Part shown: piece by piece, positions 12,035 to 28,128 of the stretch | Layout: every line of letters starts with the position of its first letter | Numbering within the stretch: the stretch's first letter is position 1 | Notes under the pieces: model-generated | What the model was told of the DNA's origin: nothing | What the model saw: the letters and a program-made list of their open reading frames with translations, nothing else | Databases searched by the model: none | Assembly: GCA_963664875.1 (NCBI GenBank) | Contig: OY761611.1 | Coordinates: forward strand, 64,001 to 128,000 | DNA from: Candidatus Kapaibacterium sp. | GTDB taxonomy: Bacteria > Bacteroidota > Ignavibacteria > Kapaibacteriales > UBA2268 | Reading direction: 5' to 3' | Length of the DNA stretch: 64,000 nt | Made by a program: the position numbers and the translations under genes

Positions 12035-12274
12035 TTCTCACCGGTAATAATATTCTATACTACAAATTTACGCATTTGTAGGCTAAGAAAAAAATCATAT
12101 AATCCGCCCTAATCTTTAGCAAAAAATAATGAAACATACGTTCGTTTATTCCGTCAAAGCAAAAGTACAAGTTGGTACAGGAAAAAGGAAAAAAATATTA
12201 AACCTTTTGCCTAACAACTGACTCTATAATTTTGACATTTCGCATATTAAATCAAACGGTTGATCAAAAAAGAG

Positions 12275-12305: not shown

Positions 12306-12306
12306 T

Positions 12307-12322
12307 ACGAACGAACGTTTGA
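12307..12322. promoter_or_regulatory. Candidate repressor operator (imperfect palindrome)
   Basis: ACGAACGAACGTTTGA immediately after the -7 box; a related inverted copy TGAAACATACGTTCGT lies at 12130-12145 and a half-site TCAAACG at 12252. Confidence 0.5.
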
Positions 12323-12342
12323 TAAAATAATTAGAGACTAAT

Positions 12343-13041
12343 ATGAACTTTGGTTTGATAGCAGCAGGAGAGGGTACAAGGTTGAAAGCCGGCGGCTGGG
12401 ATAAACCAAAAGGTTTAGCTCAAATTAACGGGGAACCCCTTATCAAAAGGTTTTTAGACCTTGCAAATTATTACAATGCAGAAAAAATATGTATCATAGT
12501 GAACGAAGAGTCGCCCGAGCTTGTTGAATATATCAACTCTTATGAAAGCTCTTCAGCAATTCACCTCAAAGTAAAATCTACTCCGAGTTCTTTGCACAGC
12601 TTCTACGAAATATCCAAGTTTTCAGAATCAGAATCTATATTCCTGTTTACAGTAGATACTGTTTTTGATTCAAAAGAATTCGATAAGTTTTATGAGTTTT
12701 CTCTCTACACTCAATACGACGGAGTATGGGGGATAAGCAATTTTATAGATGACGAAAAGCCTCTTTACGTCAGTCTCAAAGAAAATAATCTGATTGACGG
12801 TTTTCATGACGAAGGCGAGTTTGAGTATGTTACCGGTGGATTCTATTATATGAAACCTACTCTTCACAAACATCTCAAATCAGCTGTCGAATCCGGCATG
12901 GAAAGAATGAGAAATTTCCAAAGATTTTTGATTGAATTAAATCATGATATTTACGGATATAATTTTTCTAAAATTGTTGATGTAGATCATGTCTCAGATA
13001 TAGCAAAAGCTGAAGCGTTTTTAAAAGAAAGAAACAAGTAA
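12343..13041 (+). CDS. Sugar-phosphate nucleotidyltransferase (putative inositol-1-phosphate cytidylyltransferase)
   Basis: GLIAAGEGTRL...KPK motif and C-terminal DVDHVSDI; clustered with MIPS and a CDP-alcohol phosphotransferase. Confidence 0.8.
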   Translation: MNFGLIAAGEGTRLKAGGWDKPKGLAQINGEPLIKRFLDLANYYNAEKICIIVNEESPELVEYINSYESSSAIHLKVKSTPSSLHSFYEISKFSESESIFLFTVDTVFDSKEFDKFYEFSLYTQYDGVWGISNFIDDEKPLYVSLKENNLIDGFHDEGEFEYVTGGFYYMKPTLHKHLKSAVESGMERMRNFQRFLIELNHDIYGYNFSKIVDVDHVSDIAKAEAFLKERNK

Positions 13042-13069
13042 TTTTATTTAGTAAAGCAGAAAGCAAGAC

Positions 13070-13531
13070 ATGAGAAATATCATAATATTTGCCTTGATAA
13101 TTTTTTTCCTGCCGGGCTTCTTTTGGGCTGAAGGTAAATCAGCCGACAAAAAAAAAGGTACTTTGCTTGTCAAAGTTACAGGTCTGAGGACTAATAAAGG
13201 CTATGTGGTTTGCCATCTGTTTAATGATGCAGACGGTTATCCGCTAAAATCAAAAAAAGCCTTAGTTTTTCAAGATGATTTGGACATCAAAGACAGCACA
13301 GCTTCTTTTGTTTTTACTGATTTGCCTTATGGCAAATATGCTTTTACTACTCATCATGATGAGAACGCTAATCATAAAATGGATAAGACTTGGCTTGGAT
13401 TGCCTGCTGAGGGCTGGGCTTGCTCTAATAATGTTATGGGTATATTAGGAGTGGGACCACCAAGTTTCAAAGAAGCACATTTTGTAGTCAATAAAGATAC
13501 GGTTGTACAACAAATCAAAATGAATTATTAA
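13070..13531 (+). CDS. DUF2141-family exported protein
   Basis: Signal peptide; LLVKVTGL..KG, FTDLPYGKYA..HDENAN...GLPAEGW..SNN pattern. Confidence 0.85.
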   Translation: MRNIIIFALIIFFLPGFFWAEGKSADKKKGTLLVKVTGLRTNKGYVVCHLFNDADGYPLKSKKALVFQDDLDIKDSTASFVFTDLPYGKYAFTTHHDENANHKMDKTWLGLPAEGWACSNNVMGILGVGPPSFKEAHFVVNKDTVVQQIKMNY

Positions 13532-13550
13532 ACTTGGGGAATTATATATA

Positions 13551-14438
13551 ATGCAATTGGAATTTGCTGCTATCAAAAGGGCAAAAAAGTTTTCTCCTAA
13601 TCATATAGAAAATGATGCTCTTATACTGACTCAGACTGCTGAAGAACTAATCAGACTTGGCGCGAAGGTTAAGTTTTACGACGAAGAAATGCTTTTTGGC
13701 GACAGCATAAAAGAAGATTTTATATTTTCTATGTCAAGAGAAGTAGATGTAATCAAAAAACTTAAACAACTACAAAAGCAGGGAAAAGTAATCATCAATT
13801 CGCCGAAAGCTGTAAAAAACTGTTTCCGCGAAAATGTAACTACCAAACTATTAGTGTATGGAATTCCATATCCGGATAGTGTAATTATCAAAACTAACGA
13901 TTTTGATCCGATTACTCTTTCCAAATTTAACGGTTCCAAAGTATGGATAAAACGAGATAAACATATTCAGCATAGTGAAGATAGGACTCTTGCCACATGC
14001 GATGCCGAAAGAGATAATATTGTAAGAGAGTTTGGAAGAAGAGGTATCAAAAAAGCAATTGTGCAGGAACATTTGATTGGTAATGAAGTTAAGTTTTACG
14101 GTGTTCGTGGCTCTGAGTTTTTCCATTGGTATTACTCACACAAAAACATTCCGAATATCCAACTTGACGAAGAGAGATTTATCACCTTAGCTCGCAGAGC
14201 TGCAGAGACTTTGAAAGTAGATGTTTATGGTGGCGATGCTCTTATCTTACCTGACGGTACTATTTATATCATTGATTTCAATGATTGGCCAAGCTTTGCT
14301 CCTTGCAGAAATGAAGCTGCCCAAGCAATCGCTAAAATGATTTACCGTAAGGCACAGTTCAAAATTCTTACTAATGAGACTTCTTTCGTTTCGGAAGAGA
14401 CTCAGGAAGTAGTGGAAATAGAAACAAACTTCAACTAA
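13551..14438 (+). CDS. ATP-grasp fold enzyme
   Basis: VIINS, GIPYP, VWIKR, IVQEH, VKFYGV, YGGDALI..G.IYIIDFNDWPSF. Confidence 0.75.
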   Translation: MQLEFAAIKRAKKFSPNHIENDALILTQTAEELIRLGAKVKFYDEEMLFGDSIKEDFIFSMSREVDVIKKLKQLQKQGKVIINSPKAVKNCFRENVTTKLLVYGIPYPDSVIIKTNDFDPITLSKFNGSKVWIKRDKHIQHSEDRTLATCDAERDNIVREFGRRGIKKAIVQEHLIGNEVKFYGVRGSEFFHWYYSHKNIPNIQLDEERFITLARRAAETLKVDVYGGDALILPDGTIYIIDFNDWPSFAPCRNEAAQAIAKMIYRKAQFKILTNETSFVSEETQEVVEIETNFN

Positions 14439-14447
14439 TTTGGATGA

Positions 14448-15356
14448 ATGATGGCTGAGATGAATGTAGCGGCTACTTTGAAATCAAAAGATACTGAAGA
14501 GACTCTTGATATCCTTTTTTATAGACCGCTTGGATTTTTGCTTGCTAAGTTTTGTGCCAAAACAGGTATTACTCCTAATACTGTAACTTGGACAAGCATC
14601 GTGCTTGGCGGTTTTGCAGGTCATGCCTTTTACTATTCTGATTTGAATATCAATATAATCGGAATGTTGGTTTTGATTTTTGCAAATCTGCTTGATTCTA
14701 CAGACGGACAGCTCGCCCGCATGACAAATCAATGCACACGTATGGGTAGATTCTTAGATGGTTTTGGTGGTAATATCTGGTTTTTGAGCATATATATCCA
14801 CTTAGGACTCAGAATGATCAATGAAGGCTACGAGCCTTGGATTTTTGGTTTTGTCATAGTTACAGGGCTATTCCATTCGTTCCAGGCTGCTATGGCTGAT
14901 TATTACAGAAACGCTCATTTATTTTTTATTCAGGGCAAAAGTGGTTCTGAAGTTGACAGTTCAAAAAAATTGGAAGAACAGTATCTGGCTGCTTCATGGA
15001 AAAGAGAATTTTGGACTAAGACATTTTTGTTGCTTTACAAGAATTACACGGTTGAGCAGGAAATACTATCCAAAAACCTTCAGAAGTTATATGCAAAAAT
15101 AGCTGAAAAATATCCGGAGGGCACGCCTGAGTGGCTTGTTGCTAACTTCAGAAAAGGAAGCAAGCCTCTGATGAAATATACAAACATATTGACAACTAAC
15201 ACACGAATGTGGGCTTTGTTTTTCTCTATGTTTTTTGGTGAGGTGATTTGGTACTTGGTGTTCGAAGTTACTGTATTGAATATACTTCTTATTCAAATGG
15301 TAATCAGACAGGAAAGATTGAGCAAAAAGATGATATTGGAAATTGAGCAGGCATAA
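14448..15356 (+). CDS. CDP-alcohol phosphatidyltransferase family protein
   Basis: ITPNTVT and DSTDGQLARMTNQCTRMGRFLD motifs; multiple TM helices. Confidence 0.9.
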   Translation: MMAEMNVAATLKSKDTEETLDILFYRPLGFLLAKFCAKTGITPNTVTWTSIVLGGFAGHAFYYSDLNINIIGMLVLIFANLLDSTDGQLARMTNQCTRMGRFLDGFGGNIWFLSIYIHLGLRMINEGYEPWIFGFVIVTGLFHSFQAAMADYYRNAHLFFIQGKSGSEVDSSKKLEEQYLAASWKREFWTKTFLLLYKNYTVEQEILSKNLQKLYAKIAEKYPEGTPEWLVANFRKGSKPLMKYTNILTTNTRMWALFFSMFFGEVIWYLVFEVTVLNILLIQMVIRQERLSKKMILEIEQA

Positions 15357-16388
15357 GTGAAGAAGCAAAATACATATAAAACCATATTTATGATTGTTGG
15401 TTTGGCGATTTTCTCTTATCTCGTTTATAATTTTGGGATAGAGAGAATAATGCAGAATCTGCAGGAAACCGGCTGGTGGTTTGCAGCGATTGTTGCTACA
15501 TGGGGATTTGTTTATCTGTTCAACGCTTTCTCATGGTCAAGAATTGTAAAGGCTAAAGAAAACAAGATTCCTTTCAGTCAGGTTTTTGGTTTGACAGTTA
15601 GCGGCTTTTCTTTGAATTATATTACTCCTTTTGTAGGACTTGGCGGCGAGCCATATCGCATAATGGCCTATAAAGAATATATAGGAACAGAAAAGTCAGT
15701 CTCATCTGTAATTATTTTTACCTTGATGCACATGATTAGTCATGTTGTGTTTTGGGTATTCAGTATGGCTTGGGTTATTTTATTCTTGGAAATGCCTATG
15801 CACTACTGGCTAATTATGGCAGTAATTTTTATAGTGCTGCTTCTATTGCTTTCGGTTTATATCAAAGCAATGAAATCCGGATTTTTCAATACATTAAAAT
15901 GGGTGGCATCCAAGCTACCTATTAAGAAATTGAATGAAGTAATAGAAACTCATCACGACAAACTTGACGAAGCAGATAGATTTATCCGTGACTTTTACAA
16001 TACTCGTAAAAAAGATTTTTACTTAGTTGTCTTCTACGAATTTGTTTCGAGAGTGATTAGCTCATTGGAATACTACTTTATTCTAATGGCTGTAGGAGTC
16101 AATATCGGGATATTTGAAGCGATATTTATCAATGCAGGTATGTCTTTGGTAATCAATCTTACATTTTTCATTCCGTTCCAGCTTGGGGCGCGTGAAGGTT
16201 CGCTTGTGTTTGTACATGGTATGTTAGGAATCGATTCTTCGCTTGGCATATATGCGGGGCTTGTGAATCGAGTTAGAGAATTTTTCTGGATTTTAATGGG
16301 TTTAACTTTTATACAGCTTTCCGGAAGAAAGACCAAATATAAAGAAGAAAGAATGAATGAATTAGTAGAGGCGGACAATGCAAACTAA
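15357..16388 (+). CDS. Lysylphosphatidylglycerol-synthase-TM / flippase-like membrane protein (UPF0104)
   Basis: Polytopic; NYITP..GLGGEPYR and PFQLGAREG motifs; GTG start abuts the upstream stop. Confidence 0.85.
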   Translation: MKKQNTYKTIFMIVGLAIFSYLVYNFGIERIMQNLQETGWWFAAIVATWGFVYLFNAFSWSRIVKAKENKIPFSQVFGLTVSGFSLNYITPFVGLGGEPYRIMAYKEYIGTEKSVSSVIIFTLMHMISHVVFWVFSMAWVILFLEMPMHYWLIMAVIFIVLLLLLSVYIKAMKSGFFNTLKWVASKLPIKKLNEVIETHHDKLDEADRFIRDFYNTRKKDFYLVVFYEFVSRVISSLEYYFILMAVGVNIGIFEAIFINAGMSLVINLTFFIPFQLGAREGSLVFVHGMLGIDSSLGIYAGLVNRVREFFWILMGLTFIQLSGRKTKYKEERMNELVEADNAN

Positions 16389-17085
16389 AGCGATTTTATT
16401 TGATTTTGGCGGTACTATAGATACAAATGGTGTCCACTGGAGCGAAAAGTTTTGGGATACTTACGAAAGATGTAATATCTCAATCGAAAAAAAGGATTTT
16501 GAATCTGCGTATGTAAGCACGGAAAAATTGCTTGGTAGAGACAAAAGAATCAAACCGGAGATGAGCTTTTACACTATTATAAGAGAGAAACTGCTAATCC
16601 ATTTATATTTTTTGATTCAGAACAGCAAACTACCTCATACAACCAAAGTGGATGAGCTTGCTGATAAGTTAGCAGATGATTGCTATGCTAATATCAAAAA
16701 TGTAATAGAAAATGCAAATCTCACTATGGCAAAGCTGAAGCATAAATACACTCTCGGAGTTGTTTCTAATTTTTACGGTAATATTGATAAAGTACTGAAA
16801 GAATTTGGCTTGCATGAACTTTACGAGCTCATCGTTGATTCGACGATTGTCGGGATACGCAAGCCCGATCCGGAAATTTACAGACTTGCCATAGATAAAC
16901 TTGGGTTTACAGCAAGTGATGTCGCAATAGTTGGTGATTCATATACAAATGATATGGAGCCGGGAAGAACGCTTGGCTGCAAAACAGTTTGGCTCAAAGG
17001 CAGATCATGGAAAGAGGAGACTCAAACAGAGGCTGCCGACCACATAATTACAAAATTTGAAGAGCTTGAAAATCTTTTTCTCTAA
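16378..17085 (+). CDS. HAD-superfamily hydrolase
   Basis: AILFDFGGT, GVVSN, RKPDPEIY, VGDSYTND motifs. Confidence 0.9.
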   Translation: MQTKAILFDFGGTIDTNGVHWSEKFWDTYERCNISIEKKDFESAYVSTEKLLGRDKRIKPEMSFYTIIREKLLIHLYFLIQNSKLPHTTKVDELADKLADDCYANIKNVIENANLTMAKLKHKYTLGVVSNFYGNIDKVLKEFGLHELYELIVDSTIVGIRKPDPEIYRLAIDKLGFTASDVAIVGDSYTNDMEPGRTLGCKTVWLKGRSWKEETQTEAADHIITKFEELENLFL

Positions 17086-17157
17086 AGAGATTTTGGGGAT
17101 TAATATAAATAATTGCATAAATAGCAAACTAACTAAATATTCTATTTGAGGTTACAA

Positions 17158-18474
17158 ATGGGAAAATATCAAATCAAAGATGCCAATGGAAAACTTGGGG
17201 TATTGGTCGTAGGTATGAACGGTGCGGTAGCATCTACTTTTATTGCCGGTGTTTTATCAATTCGTAAAGGTTTGACTAAACCTATCGGTTCTGTTTCGCA
17301 GATGCAAACTATCAGAATCGGTAAAAGAATTGATAATAACTTCCCACTTATTAAAGATTTTGCTCCTTTAGCAAAATTGGAAGACATCGTATTTGGTGGT
17401 TGGGATATCGAAAATAAAGATATGTACGAAGCGACTTCCTCAAACGGTGTTTTGACAGAAAAAGATGTTGATGCTGTTAAAGATGAATTGCAACAGTTGC
17501 ACTGTATGCCTGCTGTTTTCGAGCAACGCTATGTGCTAAAACTTAATGGTGAGTTCGTAAAAAAAGGCGAAACTAAAGAAGATCTTGCTAATCAGCTTAG
17601 AGAAGATATTCGCAAATTTAAGCAAGAAAATGGTATTGACCGTATGGTAATGGTATGGTGCGGTTCTACTGAAGTTTATATGCAGATAAGCGATGTACAC
17701 CAAACTCTTGCAGCTTTTGAGCAAGGTTTGAAAGATAACCATGCCGGGATCTCTCCTTCTATGATTTATGCTTATGCTGCATTGAAAGAAGGCGTGCCTT
17801 ATGTAAACGGTGCTCCAAACTTGACTGTAGATATGCCTGCTATGATGGAACTTGCAGATTTGACTAAAATGCCGATTTCCGGTAAAGACTTCAAAACAGG
17901 TCAAACTCTAATCAAAACTGTGATTTCTCCTATGCTTAAAGCAAGAATGATTGGTCTTCGTGGCTGGTTTTCTACTAATATTCTTGGCAACAGAGACGGT
18001 GAAGTATTGGACGATCCTGAATCATTCAAAACAAAAGAGCAATCTAAACTATCTGTTATCGATTCTATTATTCAACCGGAATTGTATCCTGACTTATATA
18101 AAGATTACTACCATAAAGTCAGAATAAATTACTATCCGCCAAAAGGCGACAACAAAGAAGGTTGGGATCAAATTGATATATTCGGCTGGATGGGCTACCC
18201 AATGGAGTTGAAAATCAACTTCCTTTGCCGTGACTCTATCTTAGCTGCACCGATTGCACTTGATTTGGTTCTTTTCACTGATCTTGCAATGAGAGCAGGA
18301 ATGTACGGCATACAGGAATGGTTGTCATTCTACTTGAAGAGCCCAATGCACAGACCAAATGTTGTGCCTGAAAATGACCTCTTTATCCAGTTAATCAAAC
18401 TTAAAAACACTTTGAGATTGATGATGGGAGAAGAAGTAGTTACTCACGTTGAAGAGCAGGCTGACGAAATCTAA
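17158..18474 (+). CDS. ino1: myo-inositol-1-phosphate synthase
   Basis: GAVAST, FGGWDI, VWCGSTE, NGAPN, GKDFKTGQT, STNILGNRDG, DNKEGWD, CRDSILAAP; start taken at ATG 17158 after GAGG. Confidence 0.95.
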   Translation: MGKYQIKDANGKLGVLVVGMNGAVASTFIAGVLSIRKGLTKPIGSVSQMQTIRIGKRIDNNFPLIKDFAPLAKLEDIVFGGWDIENKDMYEATSSNGVLTEKDVDAVKDELQQLHCMPAVFEQRYVLKLNGEFVKKGETKEDLANQLREDIRKFKQENGIDRMVMVWCGSTEVYMQISDVHQTLAAFEQGLKDNHAGISPSMIYAYAALKEGVPYVNGAPNLTVDMPAMMELADLTKMPISGKDFKTGQTLIKTVISPMLKARMIGLRGWFSTNILGNRDGEVLDDPESFKTKEQSKLSVIDSIIQPELYPDLYKDYYHKVRINYYPPKGDNKEGWDQIDIFGWMGYPMELKINFLCRDSILAAPIALDLVLFTDLAMRAGMYGIQEWLSFYLKSPMHRPNVVPENDLFIQLIKLKNTLRLMMGEEVVTHVEEQADEI

Positions 18475-18483
18475 TTTATTTTT

Positions 18484-18523
18484 CTATTGCATCCGGCGTT
18501 GAATATAGCGCCGGGTGCAGTAG
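18484..18523 (+). terminator. Strong RNA hairpin after ino1 (terminator or mRNA stabiliser)
   Basis: CTATTGCATCCGGCGT / GCGCCGGGTGCAGTAG 16-bp stem with G-U pairs on the + strand; no U-tract follows. Confidence 0.55.
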
Positions 18524-18692
18524 GTTATGAAGTAGCAAGATTATAGAGCGACAGAATTGTGAGCCGAAACGTACATGTAAATTGTAGCTTTGCGGTGTTT
18601 TTCCACTTCACCACGCTTTCAACGTGCTACACTCAAGAGGTGAATTGAGAATGATTAGTGTTACGTAGTGGTGATAATATTGAGTGCAAAAG

Positions 18693-18822
18693 CTCACTGA
18701 GCGAGCGTAGCGAGTCGAAGTGTGATTCTCATCCGTAGGCTTACTTTCTCTCAAGCTTAGGGTACTTTGTTCTCAACCGTAGTGTTTTTTTCTTCTCAAC
18801 CGTAGGGTTAACCCTACGGCTG
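18693..18822. repeat. REP-like element plus four ~22-bp-period direct repeats ending in a perfect 20-bp palindrome
   Basis: CTCACTGAGCGAGCGTAGCGAGTCGAAGTG (18693-18722); TTCTCA(A/T)CCGTAG-like units at 18726, 18748, 18770 and 18793; CCGTAGGGTTAACCCTACGG at 18800-18819. Confidence 0.65.
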
Positions 18823-18907
18823 ATTTCTTTCAAAATTGGCTTTTTACTTTTTAACAAACATTAAACTGACTAAATTTTTTTACTCTTTCTAAGATGAAAG
18901 TTTACAA

Positions 18908-20290
18908 ATGAAACAAAAAGCAATGACAAGAGGTATTATCTATATAGTTCTATTAGCACTTTTTCAAGTGTCGGTAAGTTTTTCTGAGGAGCTTGATTTA
19001 CAAACTTTCTTAGAAAAGGCTATTGAACATAAAGGAATTGAAAAAAGGTTTGAGCTGCAAAAGCAAAAATCTGAAATGACTAAAGATGAAGTGCAAAGCC
19101 TTAAAATTTTGCCTGATGTGTCCTTGGAGCTTAGAGGTGGCATTGTACCTGAAGCGAGAGGAAATGTAAACTACTCACCCGACGAAGCAACAGATTTGGA
19201 AGGGTGGGGGCCGTTCTTTCAAAGCGAGATTAAATTTGTGCAACCGCTTTATACATTTGGTAGAATAAGCAATGCTGAAAGTGGAGCTGATTTTTTGATT
19301 CAGTCAGAAACTGCAAAGTATGAGTCTGAGAAAGCAGAATTGAAAAAGATTCTGATTGATTTATATTTTTCGACAGCTGCTGCATACAAAGCAAGCCTTA
19401 TAGCCGGCGAAGTAGAATCAGGAATGTCAAAGTTGATGGAAGAAATCGAAAAAGAACTTGAGAAAGATGATTCAGAGATTGACGACGGCGACGTCCTCGA
19501 AGCTAAAAGCTTTAGATATGTTGTTGATGAAATAGTTGAAAATAGCAAAAAGAACAAAAAATCAGGAATTTATGCAGTTAACCTTGCTTCGGGAATTGAA
19601 CTTACTGACACTGCTAAAGTAGAAAATGCAATTCCTGAGTTTGATTTTGGATTAATATCCTTTCAAAATATATGGGATTATGCTGAAAATAACAACAAGC
19701 AGATACAGCAGATAGCTTACGGTTTGAAAGCAATGGATAGTAAAATTGAGATGAGTAATTCTGAAAAGTATCCTATGCTATACCTTGCAGGTGGAATAAT
19801 GTACGGAATTGCTCCTAATAGAGATGATCAGAAAAATCCATTTGTTTATGATCCTTTCAATTATCTCACTGCCGGAGCTTTTGTAGGGATGAAATGGAAT
19901 ATGAATCTTTTCAGAACAGGCATAGCAGAAAAGAAAGATGAACTATCTAAAGCAATTTTAAGCGAAGAAGAGCAACTTCTAATAAGTCAGAAAAAAGCAG
20001 AGCTTTATGATTTGTATTTAGATGTGCAAAAAGACTATAAGCTTTTAGAATCTGTTGATAAATCAGAAAAAGACGCAAGAGCCTGGCTGACTATGAGCTT
20101 TGATAATTGGGAAATGGGAATAGGTGACCCAGAAAAACTAATCAAAGCATATAAGACATACTTTCAGCTAAAAGGCCAAAACGTGCAAAAACAGTTAGAT
20201 GTGCAAAAGAAACTTACAAAACTTGCAAATGAAATAGGAAATATTGAGCTAATAATCAAATGGGTGAAAAATGGAAAAGTTATTCTCTAA
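18908..20290 (+). CDS. TolC-family outer membrane channel
   Basis: Signal peptide, LDLQTFLEKA start, LPDVSL, QPLYTFG, YPMLYL and helical repeats typical of outer-membrane efflux proteins. Confidence 0.85.
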   Translation: MKQKAMTRGIIYIVLLALFQVSVSFSEELDLQTFLEKAIEHKGIEKRFELQKQKSEMTKDEVQSLKILPDVSLELRGGIVPEARGNVNYSPDEATDLEGWGPFFQSEIKFVQPLYTFGRISNAESGADFLIQSETAKYESEKAELKKILIDLYFSTAAAYKASLIAGEVESGMSKLMEEIEKELEKDDSEIDDGDVLEAKSFRYVVDEIVENSKKNKKSGIYAVNLASGIELTDTAKVENAIPEFDFGLISFQNIWDYAENNNKQIQQIAYGLKAMDSKIEMSNSEKYPMLYLAGGIMYGIAPNRDDQKNPFVYDPFNYLTAGAFVGMKWNMNLFRTGIAEKKDELSKAILSEEEQLLISQKKAELYDLYLDVQKDYKLLESVDKSEKDARAWLTMSFDNWEMGIGDPEKLIKAYKTYFQLKGQNVQKQLDVQKKLTKLANEIGNIELIIKWVKNGKVIL

Positions 20291-20864
20291 AATCTCGACA
20301 ACATTGTTGCTTTTAGCTGTTCTAGCTATTAGTGCTTATGCTGCAGACAGCCCAATGGATGTTGTAAAAAAATCCAACGATAAAGTATCTGCTATCAATG
20401 CAAAAAGTTCGAAACTCGACGATAAAGCAAAAAAACAGATGCTGGATGTGATTGGCTCAGTTACCAGTTGGTCTGAAATCAGCGGAGAAGTTGCATCAAA
20501 ACTGAGAGGTCTAACACCACAACAGCAAAAAGAATTTAAAGAAAAATTTGAAGAATTGCTCAGGATATCTTCTGTTAATAAATTAGGCAGATATAGAGCT
20601 GACGGATTCGAATATGTAGAAGAAAAAATAGACGGAGACAAAGCAACTGTCAAAACTTTGGCACTCTACAAAAAAGAGAAAGTAGAGCTTGTCTATGAAC
20701 TCAAAAAAATTGCCGGTAAATGGATGATAGTAAATTATATAGTTGATGGAGTGGATACTATCAGAAACTATCAAAAGCAATTTTCTAGGCTTCTTAAAAA
20801 GAAAGACTTCAACGGAATTATCGAAGTGCTTGACAAAAACATCCAAGAATCTAAAAGCGAATAA
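20271..20864 (+). CDS. MlaC/Ttg2D/HpnM-like periplasmic lipid-binding protein
   Basis: Signal peptide; LTPQQQKEF..F, ATVKT, WMIVNYIVDGV..IRNYQKQF pattern. Confidence 0.85.
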   Translation: MEKLFSKISTTLLLLAVLAISAYAADSPMDVVKKSNDKVSAINAKSSKLDDKAKKQMLDVIGSVTSWSEISGEVASKLRGLTPQQQKEFKEKFEELLRISSVNKLGRYRADGFEYVEEKIDGDKATVKTLALYKKEKVELVYELKKIAGKWMIVNYIVDGVDTIRNYQKQFSRLLKKKDFNGIIEVLDKNIQESKSE

Positions 20865-20866
20865 TC

Positions 20867-23245
20867 ATGAAAAAAATATATCAGAAGATAATTGATTATA
20901 TAATTGGTATATCAGTCAGAAAGCCATGGTTGATGCTCGGATTTGTTATTCTTATAACTGTACCAGCCGCTTATTTGCTGAAGGATATTAAAGTAGATAC
21001 TAATCTTATCAAGCTCCTTCCAAAGCATGCAAAAGCTGCAGTAGCCACTCGCGAGTTGGAAGAAATGGTTGGAGACGGGGGACACTTTATTGTTTTATTT
21101 GAAGGAGACAATAGAGAGAGCCTGATTAAAGCAGTAGAATATACTGCTACCGAAATGAAAAAAATTGATGAGCTCCAAGACGTTCATTATAAATGGCCTA
21201 CTGAGTTTTTGCAGAAATACAGATATTCTCTTTTGCCAACCGAATATTTGGACAAAATGTATGAACAGCTAATCCAATGGGAAGCTAAAGTCAATCCTTT
21301 TGTCGATAATATGCTGGTTGAAGAAAAGAAAGAAATGACTCACGGCGACAAAGAAGACGAGCAGGATCTAAAAATACTAATCCAACAATATCAGCACATG
21401 ACAGAGTATCACGAAAGTGCTGACGGAAAGATTTTTGGAATTTTGGCTCCAACTGCCAAAGGCGTTACGAATATTGGTGCTATAAAAAAAATCAAAGAGC
21501 AAATTAAAGCTATATCGGACGAGGCATCAAAAAAATACGGTGTATGGTCAGGAATTACAGGCAATCACCAAAATAAACTGAATGAATATGATATTATCAT
21601 GTTTGATTTGAATCAGTCATCTATTATTGCCGGGATTCTGATTATTCTTGTTCTTCTTATTAGCTATCGAGCCATTTCACCGATTTTTGTGACTATCTTG
21701 CCGCTAATAATAGGCTTGGTGTGGGCATTCGCTTTAGTGCCACATTATGTAGGCCCGCTTAATCTGATAACTGCATTTTTACTTTTAATCTTATTTGGTA
21801 TGGGTATAGATTATGCTATACACATAGTAAAAAGATTTCAGCTCGAATCCAATAAAACATCGCTCGAAGAAGCACTTCGCGAGACATACCATTCCACAGG
21901 TGTGGCGGTTGGACTTTCAGGTCTGACCACGGGTATCTCTCTAAGTATATTGGCTTTATCTGATTTTCGAGGTTTTTCAGAATTTGGAATAATCAGTGCC
22001 TTAGCCATCTTTATGGTACTAATGGCAATGTACTTGGCTTTGCCCGTCTTTATCGTACTTTTTGCCAGATTTAAAGGTATGCACAAAATGCCTATGGTCA
22101 GGAAACGAGTGTTCCTTCCAAATAAAGCTGCAACTGCAATTATAAGTGTTTTTGTGCTTGCTTCTATGCTGTATGCCGCCTTTAACCTGACTTTTGACTA
22201 CAATCTTGCCAATATGAACTTTGATAATCAAAAAATAGTGAATGTCGAAGAACTCAAACAGAAGCAGGGTAAGGTATATTCTAACTCTATGGGAGTAGCT
22301 GCCATTTTGCTTGCTCCTTCCGTTGAGGAAGTAGATCACTTAAAGCAGCAACTTTATGATGCAAAAAGTAAAGACAGCTCAAGCCTGATTGGCAGAATCC
22401 GTTCTATTAGGGACTATGCACCAAGTGAAGCAGATTTTGAAGAGAAACTGTTTTTAATTGAAGATATCAAAGATCAGGTATCAGGCAAGTGGACTCAGCG
22501 AATCGAAGACGCAGATCTTAAATCCATGATTGCTGATTTTATTGCATGGGAGCCACCAACTGCTCCGCCTACTATAGAAGAAATACCAAATATCATAAAA
22601 GCCAATTACGTTAGTCGCAATGGTACAGGTCATTTTCTTGTAACAGTAAATCCGAGTGAGGAAAGAAAAGACGGACGTAATGCTATGGCTTTTACTGATG
22701 ATTTATACTCAGTCAGTATGGATAAGTCTGTAAAAGGGCCAATAGGAGAGACAGTAGTTTTCGCTGAGGTACTGAAACTTGTTACAAGTGAAAGCTGGTG
22801 GATTGCTCTTGCAACATTTGCAGGAGTTGTGATTTTGATATTTCTAAATAATCACTCAGTTAAAAGAACTTTAGTTGTTCTTGTACCTTTGGTCGCTGGG
22901 ATGATGCTTACATTTGGAATTTTTGCACTTGCCGGATTTAAGCTTACTTTCTTTAATATGGTTGTAATTCCTGCACTCCTTGGCATGGGGGTAGATGGAG
23001 GGATACATTATGTACAAAGATGGTTTGAAGTAAATCGCGATACAGATGCTACACAAAAAGAGCTTTTCGAGCCGCTCTCTTTGGCGATTGTTACAACAAT
23101 GCTCGGTTATTCGGGAATGATGTTTGCAAATCATTCCGGTATCAGCTCAATTGGTAATTTTGCTGTTATCGGTTTGGGGTTGATTTGGTTTGCTACATTA
23201 GTATTTTTACCGGGAATTTTAAAAATGTTTGAACGCAAAAACTAA
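20867..23245 (+). CDS. MMPL/RND-family lipid transporter (HpnN-like)
   Basis: Two repeats of TM, periplasmic domain and five TMs; GMGIDYAIH and GMGVDGGIH; FRGFSEFG; about 790 aa. Confidence 0.88.
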   Translation: MKKIYQKIIDYIIGISVRKPWLMLGFVILITVPAAYLLKDIKVDTNLIKLLPKHAKAAVATRELEEMVGDGGHFIVLFEGDNRESLIKAVEYTATEMKKIDELQDVHYKWPTEFLQKYRYSLLPTEYLDKMYEQLIQWEAKVNPFVDNMLVEEKKEMTHGDKEDEQDLKILIQQYQHMTEYHESADGKIFGILAPTAKGVTNIGAIKKIKEQIKAISDEASKKYGVWSGITGNHQNKLNEYDIIMFDLNQSSIIAGILIILVLLISYRAISPIFVTILPLIIGLVWAFALVPHYVGPLNLITAFLLLILFGMGIDYAIHIVKRFQLESNKTSLEEALRETYHSTGVAVGLSGLTTGISLSILALSDFRGFSEFGIISALAIFMVLMAMYLALPVFIVLFARFKGMHKMPMVRKRVFLPNKAATAIISVFVLASMLYAAFNLTFDYNLANMNFDNQKIVNVEELKQKQGKVYSNSMGVAAILLAPSVEEVDHLKQQLYDAKSKDSSSLIGRIRSIRDYAPSEADFEEKLFLIEDIKDQVSGKWTQRIEDADLKSMIADFIAWEPPTAPPTIEEIPNIIKANYVSRNGTGHFLVTVNPSEERKDGRNAMAFTDDLYSVSMDKSVKGPIGETVVFAEVLKLVTSESWWIALATFAGVVILIFLNNHSVKRTLVVLVPLVAGMMLTFGIFALAGFKLTFFNMVVIPALLGMGVDGGIHYVQRWFEVNRDTDATQKELFEPLSLAIVTTMLGYSGMMFANHSGISSIGNFAVIGLGLIWFATLVFLPGILKMFERKN

Positions 23246-23263
23246 AAATAAGTGGTTGGTGTT

Positions 23264-23986
23264 ATGGGTCGTAAACCAAATACAGAAGTTAAAGAAAGAA
23301 TACTCAATACTGCAATTACATTGATCGCAGAGAGGGGATACAATGCAGTTGGAGTAAGAGAGATAGCAAAAAACGCAGATGTGTCTATCTCCATGATATC
23401 TTACTATTTTAACGGAAAGATGGGGATTTTGAAAGAAATCCTTAATATGTTTTTTGATAAATATTTGCAAATGCTTGAGGATACGGTTGATAACGAACTG
23501 ACACCAAACGACAATTTGCAAAATCTTTTTGTCAATATTTCTAAACTAATTTCTGAAAATCATGATATTTGTAAGATAGTGTTTTTGGCTATTCCGCACG
23601 ATAATCAAGAGCTTCAGGAGTTTAAGTTAGAGAAAATCCCATGCCTTATCAATCCTTCTCTGAAATTGTATCAGTCTCTAGGGTTCGATATTGAAGATAA
23701 GGTTAGGTTTAGTATCGTCGGACCTACAATTTCTCATATGCTTTTTTCTCACTTTTTCAATAAACCAATAATGAAAGAAGTTTTGGGATATGACGTTGAT
23801 TTAAGCACAAAAAATATCTATACTGAAACTATGGTTGATTTGTTCCTCGACGGTATGAATGGGGTGATTAAAAAACAAAGAGCTGAGAAAAAACAAGACT
23901 TAAAAGAAGAGTTGAAAGTAAACGAAGAATTGTGGCAAGGGAAAACAGCTCTACAAGTAGAAAAGGCTAAAGAAAGCATAGTATAA
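23264..23986 (+). CDS. TetR/AcrR-family transcriptional regulator
   Basis: KERILNTAITLIAERGYNAVGVREIAKNADVSISMISYYFNGK HTH; probable start ATG 23264. Confidence 0.92.
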   Translation: MGRKPNTEVKERILNTAITLIAERGYNAVGVREIAKNADVSISMISYYFNGKMGILKEILNMFFDKYLQMLEDTVDNELTPNDNLQNLFVNISKLISENHDICKIVFLAIPHDNQELQEFKLEKIPCLINPSLKLYQSLGFDIEDKVRFSIVGPTISHMLFSHFFNKPIMKEVLGYDVDLSTKNIYTETMVDLFLDGMNGVIKKQRAEKKQDLKEELKVNEELWQGKTALQVEKAKESIV

Positions 23987-24086: not shown

Positions 24087-25184
24087 TTATTTTGCTATAG
24101 GGAATGTAACTCTGACGTTAGTATATCTTCCCGGTTCGCTGACGATTTGAAAATTGCCGTTGTGTAGTTCTGTAATCCTTTTGGCTATAGCAACTCCAAG
24201 CCCATTGCCCTGCTGCTCGTAAACTTTTCTTTCAAACTGAACGTAAGCACCAAGATTGTCTATCTGTGCTTTTGTCATACCTCTACCAAAATCGGTAAAT
24301 TCAATTACATATTTGTTTTTGGAAGCAGTAGCGATAACTTTTATATCTGTTCCTTTGTCTGAAAATTTGAGGCAGTTATCAATTATTTCTTCTACTACTT
24401 TCATCAGATACTCTTCGCTGATGGCAAGAACTGTTTCGTCAATGTCGTATTTAATATCTTCAGTTCTGTCATAGACAGAAGCTTTGTAAAGTACTATTTC
24501 TTTAACAAAGAAGTCTGAAATATGTAGCCTGTGAGCTAATAAATCTTCCATTTCGTGCTTGTTAGTAGCTAATATTTCCAAATTTGCATAATAGAGGTAA
24601 TTTTCAAATAGTCTATGAAGCCTTTGAGCACCGTCATAGATATTAGAAAGCATATCTTTTGCATCTTCGGGTGTAGCATTGTCGTAATTGTTTTTCAGAA
24701 ATTCGGACAAGCCCAAAATAATATTAAGTGGGGTTCTGATTTCATGTGGTATTGCGCGTCGAATGTTCGAACGCAAATCTTCCATTTTTCTGTTATATGC
24801 TTTTTCATTTATTTCTTTTTTTCTCAATCTGACTTCAACTGCAGATAGCAATTCATCAATATCATAAGGTTTTGTGATATAATGGTCAGCACCAAGATTC
24901 ATGCCGTCTCTGATGTCAAATTTTTCTGATTTGGCAGAAAGAAATAGAAAAGGAATCACTGCAGTTACTGGCTCTTTTTGTAACTCTTTCAAGACATCAA
25001 AACCGCTTAGCTTCGGCATCATAATATCCGAAATAATCAGGTCAGGCAGCACTTCTTGTGCTCTTAGGAGGCCTTGCTCGCCATTAGCCGCATCGATTAC
25101 ATCATATCCGGTCAGCTGCAAAGTCCTAACAAGATCCTGCCTTATAAGTTCTTCGTCTTCAATGACCAGTATAACTTTATTCAT
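24087..25184 (-). CDS. Hybrid response regulator / histidine kinase (REC-HisKA-HATPase)
   Basis: VIEDE, ISDIMMP, YITKP; PHEIRTPL; DNCLKFS; DFGRGM; GNGLG. Confidence 0.9.
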   Translation of the reverse strand: MNKVILVIEDEELIRQDLVRTLQLTGYDVIDAANGEQGLLRAQEVLPDLIISDIMMPKLSGFDVLKELQKEPVTAVIPFLFLSAKSEKFDIRDGMNLGADHYITKPYDIDELLSAVEVRLRKKEINEKAYNRKMEDLRSNIRRAIPHEIRTPLNIILGLSEFLKNNYDNATPEDAKDMLSNIYDGAQRLHRLFENYLYYANLEILATNKHEMEDLLAHRLHISDFFVKEIVLYKASVYDRTEDIKYDIDETVLAISEEYLMKVVEEIIDNCLKFSDKGTDIKVIATASKNKYVIEFTDFGRGMTKAQIDNLGAYVQFERKVYEQQGNGLGVAIAKRITELHNGNFQIVSEPGRYTNVRVTFPIAK

Positions 25185-25192
25185 ATTACACC

Positions 25193-26938
25193 TTAGAGAT
25201 TATTAGGGATTCTGAAAGTGAAAGTAGAGCCGATATTTTTTCTGCTCTTGACTTCTATTTTTCCGTTTAGCTGTTTAATAGATTGCAATACAACAGCCAT
25301 GCCAAGACCTGTGCCTGAGATAGTTCCGACATTGTCAGCTCTGTAAAACAAATCAAAAATCTTTTCCTGCTCATCCTCAGGAATGCCGATACCAAAATCC
25401 TCAACTGAAATGACTGCAATATCTCTGAAGACAGCAGCATCAATATTGACATGTTTTGATTCATCTGAATATTTGAGAGCATTTGTAATCAGATTAAGCA
25501 AAATCAGTCGAAGCAGTTTGTCGTCAGTATTCAAGTAGTCTTCTTCTGTAGATATTTTGATGTTGACAGTTCTTCCTTTGCCAAGTGTAAGTTTTAAATC
25601 GTTGACCAGCATGGAAATAAAATCTTTTAACTTGATTTTGGACAATCTGATATGTTTGTTTTGCTCGTCTTTTCCGATATAAATCACATTTTCAATCAAA
25701 TCAGTCATAATATCCACTGTTTTCATGATTCTGCTGAGATAGTCCTTTTTCTCTTCTTCAGAAAGACGTACAAAAAACTTATCTAAAAGCTGAGCTGCAG
25801 ATTTAATTATTGTTAGCGGAGTTCTGAACTCGTGCGATACCATACTTACAAATTTAGACTTCATCTCATTGAGTTCTTTTTCGGCTGCAAGCATTTTTCG
25901 AGCTTCTGATTCAGCTCTTTCGCGAATTCTGATTTCTTCTTTTAGCTTATGAATAAGCAGTTGCAAATCTTCAGTTCTCTCTTCCACTTTTAGTTCGAGT
26001 ATTTCGTTAGATTTGCGTAATTGGTTTTCTCTTTGCTTTCTGTCCGAAATATCAACAAAACTTTCTATAAAAAACTTTTGAGTGCCAAGATTGATAGAAG
26101 ATATAGTCCTCAGGATTGGCAGAGTCTTTTTATTGGTTTTTAGTTCAGATTCGAAGTTTGTGAAACTGTTTCTGGAATCCCCGGAAAAATGCACTGTAGA
26201 TAAGAATTTTTCTCGTTTTGAGCCAAGGATTTCATTTTCAGGTAGTCCGATCATAGTCTCGCCAACAGGATTAATTCTGATTATGTAATCAGTATCAGCG
26301 TCAATTACCATGATACCTGAATGAACCGAGTCGAAAATAGTGCGAAGTTCGCGTCGGCTTTTAGCAAGATCCATCGTCCTTTCTGCAACTTTCTGCTCTA
26401 ATATAAGTTTTGAGCGATTGAGGTTGATAAAAAGCTTGGTGTTTTCAAGTGAACCTGCAAATAATCCGGCATGCAGAGAGCATAATTTTAATAAATCTAT
26501 ATCAAAATCGCTTTCTTCACATTTTAGTAAAATCAAGACTAAGCCCAAAACACCCCAGGAAGCTTTTAGCGGTATTACAAGTGCTGTACTAAAGCTCTTT
26601 ATTGGTTCGTTTTGTAGTGAATACAAATGAATTTTACCTGATTCAAGTACTTTGCCTATGTTGCCGTTATCAATGAAATCAGAATAGATTGTTTCCAAAC
26701 TGTCACTAAATTCTTCTGGCAGGCATAGGTTTTGTTCAAATTCAAAACTTGTGTCATTAAGAAGGTAAAAAGAGGAAATATTATCATAAGGGAGTTTTGA
26801 GAAAACTTTAATACCATCTGCAATAACAAGGTTAATGCGTTCGGTATAAGCTCTGTTTTTGACATATTGTTCTATATCGTGCAAAAATGATGCACAAACA
26901 GCAGACATATAAGTTATATTTTCTCGTTCCTGTCTCAA
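25193..26938 (-). CDS. GAF/PAS sensor histidine kinase
   Basis: GAF-like N-terminus (IPLKASWGVLG), PAS, SHEFRTPL, NLITNALKYS, DFGIGI, GTGLG. Confidence 0.9.
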   Translation of the reverse strand: MRQERENITYMSAVCASFLHDIEQYVKNRAYTERINLVIADGIKVFSKLPYDNISSFYLLNDTSFEFEQNLCLPEEFSDSLETIYSDFIDNGNIGKVLESGKIHLYSLQNEPIKSFSTALVIPLKASWGVLGLVLILLKCEESDFDIDLLKLCSLHAGLFAGSLENTKLFINLNRSKLILEQKVAERTMDLAKSRRELRTIFDSVHSGIMVIDADTDYIIRINPVGETMIGLPENEILGSKREKFLSTVHFSGDSRNSFTNFESELKTNKKTLPILRTISSINLGTQKFFIESFVDISDRKQRENQLRKSNEILELKVEERTEDLQLLIHKLKEEIRIRERAESEARKMLAAEKELNEMKSKFVSMVSHEFRTPLTIIKSAAQLLDKFFVRLSEEEKKDYLSRIMKTVDIMTDLIENVIYIGKDEQNKHIRLSKIKLKDFISMLVNDLKLTLGKGRTVNIKISTEEDYLNTDDKLLRLILLNLITNALKYSDESKHVNIDAAVFRDIAVISVEDFGIGIPEDEQEKIFDLFYRADNVGTISGTGLGMAVVLQSIKQLNGKIEVKSRKNIGSTFTFRIPNNL

Positions 26939-27787
26939 TTATACCTTCAGTAATAGTGCGACTGATTCTTGATATTGTTTATATATTTCGTCGATATTCT
27001 TTGTAAAATAGTTGTCCGGTAATTTTAAGAATTCCCAGACCTCTTTATTGGGTTTTGGTATTATTTCTTCGTTATTATCGCCAAATTCCAGTAGGGTAGA
27101 GGCAATATTTGCTACATGCACACATGAAACGAGCAAGCTCAGTTTGCCTGAAACTTTACCTGTATAAAGGTTGCTGATAACATCACGAATGTTAATTGGC
27201 AGTTTCCACTTTTCAGCGAGCAAATCCCCAACAACCGTATGTGTAATACCCAAAAATTTCAACTCAGCTTCTCTGAGAGATACTTTATTAGCAAGCGAGT
27301 AGTTATATGCTTTGGCATATTCATTTGGGACATACTTGTAAAAAAGTAACTTTCCAATATCATGCAGAATGCCTGCAATAAAGTAATTTTCTAAATTTCT
27401 GACACCAATTGTCATGCCGGCGTGTCTTGTTATTGTGCCCACTGCGATTGAATGTTTCCAAAGGTTAACAGGATTGAAAGAGGCAGGAGCATTTAATTTG
27501 GAAAACATCTCGATAATAGAGAGAGCAAGAACTAAGTTTTTTACTTCTTCAAAACCAATAAAAGTGATGGCTTGAGTAATCGTAGTAATTCTGCCTCTGA
27601 AGCCGTAAATCGAAGAATTTGCAGCTTTCAGTATTTTAGAAGCAGATGCCTGATCCTGGCTGATTATATTGGCTACATCAGTAGGAGTCGAGCGGTGATT
27701 AGACATCACATCCGATAGTTTTGTATATACTGTCGGTAAAGTAGGGAATTCGTCAATTCTGTCTATTATGTTTTGTATGTTTTTCAA
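26939..27787 (-). CDS. HDOD-domain protein
   Basis: FPTLP, ISQDQA..KILKAANS, AITFIG, LWKHS, AGILHDIGK, HTVVG..LAEKWKLP. Confidence 0.92.
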   Translation of the reverse strand: MKNIQNIIDRIDEFPTLPTVYTKLSDVMSNHRSTPTDVANIISQDQASASKILKAANSSIYGFRGRITTITQAITFIGFEEVKNLVLALSIIEMFSKLNAPASFNPVNLWKHSIAVGTITRHAGMTIGVRNLENYFIAGILHDIGKLLFYKYVPNEYAKAYNYSLANKVSLREAELKFLGITHTVVGDLLAEKWKLPINIRDVISNLYTGKVSGKLSLLVSCVHVANIASTLLEFGDNNEEIIPKPNKEVWEFLKLPDNYFTKNIDEIYKQYQESVALLLKV

Positions 27788-28128
27788 TTATCTTGCTTTT
27801 CTGAGTTATTGGAAATAATACTTTTAGCTTTGAGCACGATTGCAATATTGAATAAATCTTTCTCAATTTTTTGCTCCGGTTCCCAAATCATTCTTTCTCT
27901 AAGCAGTGCATTGGCTTTTTCTTTTAACTCATCACTCAATTCAAACGTAGATGATTCTTCATCAGATTGGATATAGATATTGCTTACATTCCAAGTCTTC
28001 AAAATAATCTTGTGTTTTGGATTAAGTTTAATTCCCTGAGGAAGTAAAGTTTGCCCAAAATTGTTTATCACAGGTTCGGCTAATACCATACCTTCGATAA
28101 TATCATCTATGGAGACTAATGAAGCCAT
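27784..28128 (-). CDS. Small HDOD-associated hypothetical protein
   Basis: IEGMVLAEPV.NNFGQTLL..GIKL resembles the N-terminal module of HD-GYP proteins; overlaps the HDOD start by 4 nt. Confidence 0.7.
   Translation of the reverse strand: MASLVSIDDIIEGMVLAEPVINNFGQTLLPQGIKLNPKHKIILKTWNVSNIYIQSDEESSTFELSDELKEKANALLRERMIWEPEQKIEKDLFNIAIVLKAKSIISNNSEKQDN

Follow-up and report, generated by a model that had tools for sequence, protein, structure and literature searches.

Positions 64,001 to 128,000 of contig OY761611.1 (assembly GCA_963664875.1, Candidatus Kapaibacterium sp.) make up the 64,000-nucleotide stretch analyzed here, hereafter the window; all coordinates below are positions within it. 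The window carries an 11.6-kb row of eleven genes in two blocks. Block 1, from an NTP transferase gene to a myo-inositol-1-phosphate synthase (MIPS) gene, encodes a putative inositol lipid head-group pathway, and block 2, from a TolC-like gene to a TetR-family gene, encodes a candidate three-part lipid transporter and a regulator. The genes are as follows.

12343..13041, + strand: NTP transferase, predicted inositol-phosphate cytidylyltransferase (IPCT-like; PF12804, E = 5e-8; NF041135, 34 bits against a cut-off of 580).
13070..13531, + strand: DUF2141 protein with a hydrophobic N-terminal segment (residues 4-22; PF09912).
13551..14438, + strand: ATP-grasp enzyme of an unnamed family, possible inositol or inositol-phosphate kinase or ligase (model fold and profile matches).
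14448..15356, + strand: CDP-alcohol phosphotransferase whose motif has Gly at the position of the fourth Asp (PF01066, E = 7e-12; motif DSTDGQLAR...GRFLDGFG-G).
15357..16388, + strand: LPG-synthase-TM/HpnL-like membrane protein, possible flippase (PF03706, E = 2e-34; TIGR00374 above its cut-off, the HpnL model below).
16378..17085, + strand: HAD-IA hydrolase, predicted phosphatase (PF13419, PF00702; motif I, DFGGT).
17146..18474, + strand: MIPS, likely start codon ATG at 17161 (PF07994, E = 3e-103; PF01658, E = 6e-33; single copy in the genome).
18908..20290, + strand: TolC-like outer-membrane factor, a distinct subfamily whose barrel loops carry conserved motifs (PF02321; structural model and Foldseek).
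20271..20864, + strand: MlaC/Ttg2D/HpnM-like periplasmic carrier with a signal peptide (PF05494, E = 1e-23; profile matches to Ttg2D and MlaC structures).
20867..23245, + strand: MMPL/RND inner-membrane transporter related to HpnN (PF03176; HpnN model TIGR03480, 252 bits against a cut-off of 752).
23252..23986, + strand: TetR-family regulator (PF00440; one of seven TetR genes in the genome).

A preliminary description of this DNA, made from its letters alone, had proposed eleven same-strand genes in two tightly packed blocks. Examination of the open reading frames placed all eleven on the plus strand at the coordinates above, with successive intergenic gaps of 28, 19, 9, 0, −11, 75, 433, −20, 2, and 6 bp (the 75-bp gap before MIPS being measured to ATG 17161). 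Pfam searches returned the families that had been guessed: NTP_transf_3, DUF2141, none for the third gene, CDP-OH_P_transf, LPG_synthase_TM, HAD_2, MIPS, OEP, MlaC, MMPL, and TetR_N. The base composition of the row is the same as that of the remaining window. All eleven genes were found in the same order in four of four relatives of the same genus, at 72 to 94% identity.

The synthesis of inositol phosphate by MIPS is an established family function, and the chemistry of CDP activation and transfer is likewise established from the enzyme families concerned. The block 1 genes were compared with models of known inositol lipid pathways. The model of the fused IPCT/DIPPS enzyme (NF041135) does not describe the window, which has two separate genes scoring 34.4 and 23.5 bits against the cut-off of 580, and the model of the BT_1523-type phosphatidylinositol phosphate (PIP) synthase (NF052561) reached 25.7 bits against a cut-off of 350. 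Heaver et al. (2022; PMC9246714) outlined a putative alternative cluster in which a CDP-inositol route leads to phosphoinositol-diacylglycerol (PI-DAG) and phosphoinositol-dihydroceramide (PI-DHC); the authors call the functions unconfirmed, and species carrying the cluster produce inositol lipids (PMC9246714). The combination that marks this alternative, an NTP transferase, a CDP-alcohol phosphotransferase, and a HAD hydrolase beside MIPS without a BT_1523-type PIP synthase, is present here, and together with the LPG-synthase-like gene these match the Heaver set, as the preliminary description had also suggested. Judged by gene content, block 1 is a Heaver-type alternative (CDP-inositol) lipid cluster to which an ATP-grasp enzyme and a DUF2141 protein are added.

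The ATP-grasp gene had no Pfam match at an E value of 0.01, and its NCBIfam-level matches were weak and to the RimK family. Its predicted structure has an ATP-grasp fold (predicted local distance difference test score, 89.6). By fold comparison, ArgX (Z = 22.1; root-mean-square deviation [rmsd] = 2.8, 250 aligned) and RimK (Z = 21.9) ranked slightly above ITPK1 (Z = 19.4; rmsd = 3.4, 259 aligned), and Foldseek placed D-Ala ligases on top. Profile comparison with the PDB was led, weakly, by ITPKs (E = 0.002 to 0.009), and a D-x-N motif near the C terminus is common to ITPKs, where the ligase PsnB has E-x-N. A search of the ESM Atlas returned clusters of hypothetical proteins only, with RimK in 16% of the members of one cluster. 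ITPK1 relatives have been described from eukaryotes and Lokiarchaeota (PMC8024741). The window enzyme, known from its sequence and model, thus shares with the ITPK1 family (PDB entries 2q7d, 7pup, and 1z2n) the ATP-grasp fold and C-terminal D-x-N and is likewise tied to MIPS, and it differs in having no Pfam match and an overall fold that scores slightly higher against the ArgX/RimK ligases. That tie is close: among 400 other genomes of the phylum, 22 carried this ATP-grasp family, 21 of them also carried MIPS, and in 19 the two genes lay within 10 kb. By this distribution the ATP-grasp gene is a core member of block 1. Twenty block 1 loci from 19 of these 22 genomes served as the comparison set in what follows (in G071, G375, and G405 the ATP-grasp and MIPS genes are not adjacent). 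Four block 1 loci have a tandem pair of ATP-grasp genes. Fourteen of the 20 (among L233-L249) add a class III aminotransferase and a Gfo/Idh oxidoreductase, an addition that suggests an amino-inositol head group.

HpnN-type and MlaC-type proteins are established lipid-handling families, and block 2 encodes one of each beside an outer-membrane factor. The TolC-like protein was modeled with four strands and long helices (predicted local distance difference test score, 86.5), matched OprN and TolC in Foldseek (E = 1e-16), and has a loop between strands 290-301 and 319-329 in which R305, P311, and N318 are invariant. The MlaC-like carrier is the genome's single match to the MlaC profile. The nearest solved structures to the MMPL protein are those of HpnN (5khn and 6wu0), yet the hopanoid models all fell below their cut-offs (HpnN, 252 against 752 bits; HpnM, 48.7 against 160; HpnL, 119 against 196), and the sterol transporter model BstA (NF045600) gave 181 bits against 1,400. 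A profile built from the genome's own HlyD-type adaptors detected none in the cluster and none in 54 of 54 relative loci with both TolC and MlaC; it matched nine genes elsewhere in the genome, and an unlinked adaptor could still serve the cassette. By these searches, block 2 is a TolC-MlaC-MMPL cassette without an adaptor gene. One MMPL relative (P0064) is fused to a family 2 glycosyltransferase.

To determine whether the two blocks belong together, we compared gene neighborhoods. Among 254 genomes of the order, the window-type MMPL occurred in 11, all within one family and spread over six genera. Two of these (G502 and G507) were set aside because of contig ends; in all nine judgeable genomes, representing five genera, TolC-MlaC-MMPL followed MIPS and block 1. 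MMPL identity in the linked clusters outside the genus was 39 to 49%, and in G519 the gap between MIPS and TolC was only about 43 bp. Because the order is kept in nine of nine genomes and five genera at such divergence, the link between the blocks does not look like chance. Outside the genus, we collected 157 loci with MMPL relatives, drawn from the top 160 among at least 910 matches; L010 and L011, which belong to the genus itself, were removed before counting. This set is redundant (many Balneolaceae) and often incomplete. TolC and MlaC occurred together in 54 loci, IPCT-like genes in 29 (the IPCT/DIPPS identity being checked against NF041135 on four examples), and MIPS in 16, under titles that include Latescibacterota, Balneolaceae, Gemmatimonadota, Aminicenantes, and Spirochaetota. 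A metagenome search with the single MMPL sequence recovered none; an alignment used as the query did recover relatives. The preliminary description had joined the head-group block to the transporter block and suggested looking for the same company in other groups; on the link the neighborhoods agree with it, and IPCT-like genes keep company with MMPL relatives in other phyla as well.

These data also bear on whether the cassette is a hopanoid transport set (HpnL-HpnM-HpnN) or the row a chance juxtaposition of two unrelated operons. HpnL, HpnM, and HpnN are the top NCBIfam matches for the three genes concerned, and the cassette is found in only 11 of the order's 254 genomes. Against this, the three scores lie far below their cut-offs, a search with TIGR01507 found no candidate squalene-hopene cyclase in the genome, which is 100% complete, and the linkage persists across five genera. 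We rejected hopanoids as the cargo and consider it scarcely credible that either version of this explanation accounts for the row.

In some Balneolaceae loci (L035, L046, L047, L053, L060, and similar), the genes between TolC-MlaC and MMPL vary and include DUF3047, Wzi-like, flippase, glycosyltransferase, methyltransferase, and MIPS-IPCT genes, an arrangement that resembles a slot for exchangeable head-group modules. One contig titled Hyphomicrobiales (L023) equals a contig of the Kapabacteria family (G502:C340) in length, and their MMPLs are indistinguishable, probably through a binning error.

Block 1 loci elsewhere in the phylum revealed a second transport system in the same setting. Window-type MMPL or MlaC genes were present in 0 of the 20 comparison loci. 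MlaE, MlaF, and MlaD genes lay inside 15 of these 20 loci and in none of the nine cassette clusters, a contrast between kin groups picked by different markers, for which we give no statistic; the window's genome has two unlinked MlaE homologues. The MlaEFD genes stand mostly between the NTP transferase and ATP-grasp genes, and in most related clusters this is the slot that DUF2141 occupies in the window; DUF2141 was present in 8/9 cassette-bearing clusters and 0/20 of the other block 1 loci. A flippase-like gene was found in 18 of the 20. One head-group pathway therefore appears to travel with either of two unrelated lipid-transport sets, in what looks like a transporter swap. This exchange supports a lipid-transport role for block 2, and no other observation argues as strongly that what block 1 makes is handled by block 2.

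We lean toward the view that the cassette delivers an inositol-phosphate lipid, probably ceramide based, outward to the outer membrane. In such a scheme, MIPS makes inositol phosphate, which the NTP transferase would convert to the activated donor CDP-inositol; phosphoinositol would then be passed by the CDP-alcohol phosphotransferase to a lipid alcohol, probably ceramide. The latter two steps are modeled on the IPCT/BEPIS pair of Rhodothermus and on the Heaver model. The HAD phosphatase and the ATP-grasp enzyme might perhaps tune how the inositol precursor is phosphorylated. Flipping of the lipid would fall to the LPG-synthase-TM protein. The MMPL protein would lift the lipid from the inner membrane, and the MlaC-like carrier would ferry it through the periplasm to the TolC-like receiver, as suggested by HpnN/HpnM and by the MlaEFD swap. 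We infer the cargo, the direction, and the role of the TolC-like protein alike.

The direction can be read otherwise. The cassette might work inward or in upkeep, retrieving or importing lipids (a ceramide acceptor or a misplaced outer-membrane lipid) as Mla systems do. It stands in place of MlaEFD in these clusters, its carrier has the MlaC fold, and in one family (f36) it is present in all genomes regardless of MIPS. The nearest solved relatives of the MMPL protein are the HpnN and MmpL exporters, however, and the genome has its own homologues of ceramide genes, so that we consider an inward role unlikely. Secretion is a second option, in which a lipid or other lipophilic product would leave the cell through the TolC tunnel, the MlaC-like protein replacing the adaptor. 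The TolC model retains the full OEP architecture, and the lack of an adaptor gene in all 54 TolC-MlaC loci would fit, but the interchange with MlaEFD and the adjacency to membrane-lipid genes are better suited to an envelope lipid, as is the occurrence of an Omp85-like barrel after or fused to MMPL in three related genera; secretion seems to us improbable as well. The barrel is fused to MMPL in one genus (L266:76-3834, G507; P0012) and directly follows it in two others (L262:12849-14150; L268:3098-4537). The same barrel family is found beside MIPS in 5/20 MlaEFD-type or other block 1 loci, and that query had no match in the window's genome.

A further possibility is that the product of block 1 is an inositol-phosphate compound that is soluble or bound to a polymer (a solute like di-myo-inositol-phosphate or a surface-polymer decoration) and that the cassette is a neighbor with another cargo. 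The matches to IPCT/DIPPS are weak, the ATP-grasp fold is closest to ligases, and the phosphotransferase motif is a variant: it departs from the full motif DX2DGX2AR...GX3DX3D, and among the 19 relatives with a readable motif the fourth position is Gly in 16 and Asp, Glu, and Thr in one each. Such a product would sit poorly with the flippase-like gene and MlaEFD in most related loci and with the inositol lipids made by species that have this cluster (PMC9246714), and we regard it as very unlikely.

The preliminary description had called the transporter dedicated to an inositol lipid, and this part was not supported. In family f36, probably Balneolaceae, all 61 genomes carried the cassette; 26 of them had MIPS, and in 24 of these the two lay within 10 kb; of 13 other genomes with both the cassette MMPL and MIPS, none had them within 10 kb. 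Block 1 is in turn independent of the cassette, the window-type MMPL being absent from all 22 other ATP-grasp genomes, and five of the 20 block 1 loci carry neither transporter set. Among 15 close MMPL relatives with at least 6 kb of upstream sequence, head-group matches were found in two, one of them doubtful, and a trio of ceramide genes in five. At six loci (five titled Acidobacteriota and one metagenomic), TolC-MlaC directly adjoins homologues of E. coli BL21 Spt, YghO/bCerS, and CerR; the five Acidobacteriota MMPLs form one clade in the tree and therefore represent a single event. These observations and the variant phosphotransferase motif count against the favored reading. MlaEFD-type systems are best known for inward transport, and the swap therefore leaves the direction of transport unfixed. 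The neighborhoods are consistent with the cassette being a general module for complex envelope lipids, one that this family has attached to inositol head-group genes.

Ceramide as the lipid part rests on a related set of comparisons. Spt, YghO, and an epimerase make up the gene list for dihydroceramide synthesis (PMC9386255). Best matches to Spt, bCerS, and CerR in the window's genome had E values of 3e-79, 6e-64, and 6e-32, respectively, with the three genes unlinked. The nearest PDB entry to the Spt-like protein is a solved Spt, but its score of 488 bits lies below the NCBIfam cut-off of 640, which lessens its weight as evidence for ceramide. Spt-like genes were present in 96/96 genomes with the MMPL (three partial matches, G056, G081, and G175, having been removed) and yet also in 214/304 others; because they are common without the MMPL as well, their co-occurrence does not discriminate. 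At about 450 to 520 bits, below the NCBIfam cut-off, such a gene is near-universal in the genome's class and in several other groups (311/401 genomes matched). One Bacteroidota locus (L251, 4098-16545) brings together Spt, bCerS-like, CerR-like, MIPS, a DUF5686 outer-membrane protein, a fatty-acid hydroxylase, and block 1. We found no paper linking DUF2141 with sphingolipids. LptF and LptG are present in one copy each, and single-sequence queries with LptF2 and LptG2 of E. coli BL21 reached the same two genes only; the genome therefore appears to lack the LptF2/LptG2 route of Caulobacter.

If ceramide is not the acceptor, the cassette might instead carry a glycerolipid, phosphatidylinositol or a dialkyl-ether form. 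The sole worked-out CDP-inositol lipid route, IPCT/BEPIS of Rhodothermus, uses a glycerol-ether acceptor (PMC4587543, citing Jorge 2015), PI-DAG is made first in the Heaver model (PMC9246714), and Spt is unlinked and nondiscriminating here. The cassette and block 1 nevertheless each adjoin the Spt trio, in separate lineages, and a glycerolipid product seems to us a rather remote prospect. We therefore keep outward delivery of a probably ceramide-based inositol-phosphate lipid as the favored interpretation. A bolder one, offered tentatively and in our judgment doubtful, would make MMPL, the MlaC-like carrier, and the specialized TolC a new outward lipid pathway. Its receiver, a TolC-fold protein acting without an adaptor, would insert complex sphingolipids, inositol-phosphoceramide among them, into the outer membrane. 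The pathway would be the missing sphingolipid route of many phyla with a single LptFG and could be exchanged for an MCE transporter; in the same picture, the ATP-grasp enzyme would act as a bacterial inositol kinase of the ITPK type.

Noncoding features of the row, some of which bear on its regulation, are listed next with the genes that converge on its end.

12133..12150, no strand assigned: operator-like box A, core AACG-AA-CGT in reverse orientation, kept in five of five same-genus genomes (21.1 bits, the genome's second-best site).
12306..12323, no strand assigned: operator-like box B, 20 bp upstream of the start codon of the first gene, likewise kept in five of five same-genus genomes, with 20 consecutive invariant columns (24.1 bits, the genome's best site).
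18483..18524, + strand: strong RNA hairpin after the MIPS stop codon, without a U-tract, possible terminator or stabilizer (−32.2 kcal/mol, z = −7.2).
18686..18825, no strand assigned: two short repeats lying between block 1 and block 2 (overlapping matches in the genome, about 30 and about 5).
18872..18907, + strand: conserved AT-rich leader ahead of TolC, which might serve as an internal promoter or a translation signal (nearly invariant in five of five same-genus genomes).
24087..28128, − strand: genes converging on the end of the row (a response-regulator kinase, a PAS kinase, an HDOD protein, and a small gene).

The next unrelated genomic site after boxes A and B scored 15.7 bits, although the matrix was built from the relatives' sites and the ranking of the window's boxes is thus partly circular. 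Scanning the genome with this matrix gave no site before TolC or before TetR. In another genus, and independently of that ranking, it gave 25.4 bits just upstream of the closest homologue of the TetR protein (36%), whose gene stands first in a TolC-adaptor-RND operon unrelated to the row. It is therefore likely that the box goes with this TetR subfamily. Box B is likely bound by the locus TetR, and in this genus the TetR likely represses from the two boxes upstream of the first gene. Applied to the 20 other block 1 loci, the matrix found just two weak sites (12 to 13 bits); a look-alike box upstream of the G510 cluster, picked by pattern match, was rejected because it fell below the matrix threshold. 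A TetR gene directly follows MMPL in five of five genus members and also follows the MMPL fusion in G507, but not MMPL in G510, G518, or G519. By this distribution the TetR is a local addition. In two genera (L263:8765-10001 and L264:369-5473), the lipid cluster begins right behind a TolC or RND efflux operon, and such an operon may be where the window's TetR and boxes came from.

The preliminary description had placed both blocks under one TetR. In support, the only place in the locus with a box linked to this TetR subfamily is the stretch ahead of the first gene. On the other side stand the absence of TetR next to MMPL in three other genera and the position of the hairpin and the conserved leader between the blocks; in four relatives, the hairpin had z scores of −3.8, −2.1, −0.5, and −1.5. 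Two sets of metatranscriptome contigs (X1 and X2) were patchy on both blocks, and none bridged 18474-18908, with cover too low to tell and contigs being unable to prove transcripts. Scans for promoters and for terminators came out no better than chance (44 against 39.4 and 7 against 7.0, respectively). The gap between the blocks measures 433 bp in the window and about 173 to 224 bp in four of four same-genus relatives, the greater length in the window being due to the repeats; one repeat family is about 35 bp long and the other is a perfect palindrome of about 20 bp, both dispersed genome-wide. Among the convergent genes, the first, the response-regulator kinase, is kept in place in four of four genus relatives, with no sign of a functional tie.

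Comparison with described systems shows which parts of the row are familiar. The alternative cluster of Bacteroides vulgatus and Prevotella shares MIPS, the NTP transferase, the CDP-alcohol phosphotransferase, HAD, and the LPG-synthase-like gene with block 1; its accessible text names no ATP-grasp, DUF2141, exporter, or regulator gene, although an ATP-grasp gene may stand unlabeled in the tables or Fig. 6 (PMC9246714). The window differs further in the Gly at the fourth phosphotransferase position and in its host, an environmental lineage of the Kapabacteria type. Rhodothermus marinus IPCT/BEPIS likewise combines MIPS, a cytidylyltransferase, and a phosphotransferase that uses CDP-inositol as the lipid head-group donor, but its acceptor is a dialkyl-ether glycerol, and the accessible text of the sources describes no transporter, ATP-grasp, or HAD protein (PMC4587543, PMC9246714). 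For block 2, the HpnN-HpnM-HpnS(-HpnL) model of hopanoid trafficking (Lawrence et al. 2025; PMC12324291) offers an MMPL pump, an MlaC-like shuttle, and an HpnL-like protein nearby; its outer-membrane partner, as far as the source describes it, is MlaA-like where the window's is TolC-like, and the window has subthreshold scores throughout and no hopene cyclase. Tripartite RND pumps of the AcrAB-TolC type also unite an RND-family pump, a TolC-fold channel, and TetR in one row. They have a periplasmic adaptor, whereas the window has a soluble lipid carrier gene between the channel and pump genes and a pump of the HpnN/MmpL branch.

Outside Caulobacter, how the outer membrane receives its sphingolipids and inositol lipids has been described as an open question (PMC11324152, PMC11087976, bioRxiv 10.64898/2026.04.12.717747). 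The last of these, a preprint on Caulobacter LptF2/LptG2 that addresses the same question of sphingolipid transport, suggests an MmpL downstream of spt in Myxococcus xanthus as an alternative route in bacteria with a single lptFG; the MmpL was not put to the test, and no MlaC-like carrier or TolC is named in its accessible text. Our literature search, which mostly did not extend to subscription journals, found no paper on the TolC-MlaC-MMPL set or its tie to inositol-lipid genes. The row, together with the different transporter in most related gene sets, points to a lipid route through the cell envelope that has not been described. Its 11.6 kb unite a putative head-group pathway with a candidate transporter of three parts and could be expressed as a unit, and the MlaEFD swap brings up another candidate by which this lipid might travel. 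If the interpretation is correct, a textbook fold would be put to a new use in a TolC protein that works with a soluble carrier and without an adaptor. Every part of the row has its like among systems already described or proposed; the same literature search turned up neither the TolC-MlaC-MMPL set without an adaptor nor its interchange with MlaEFD.

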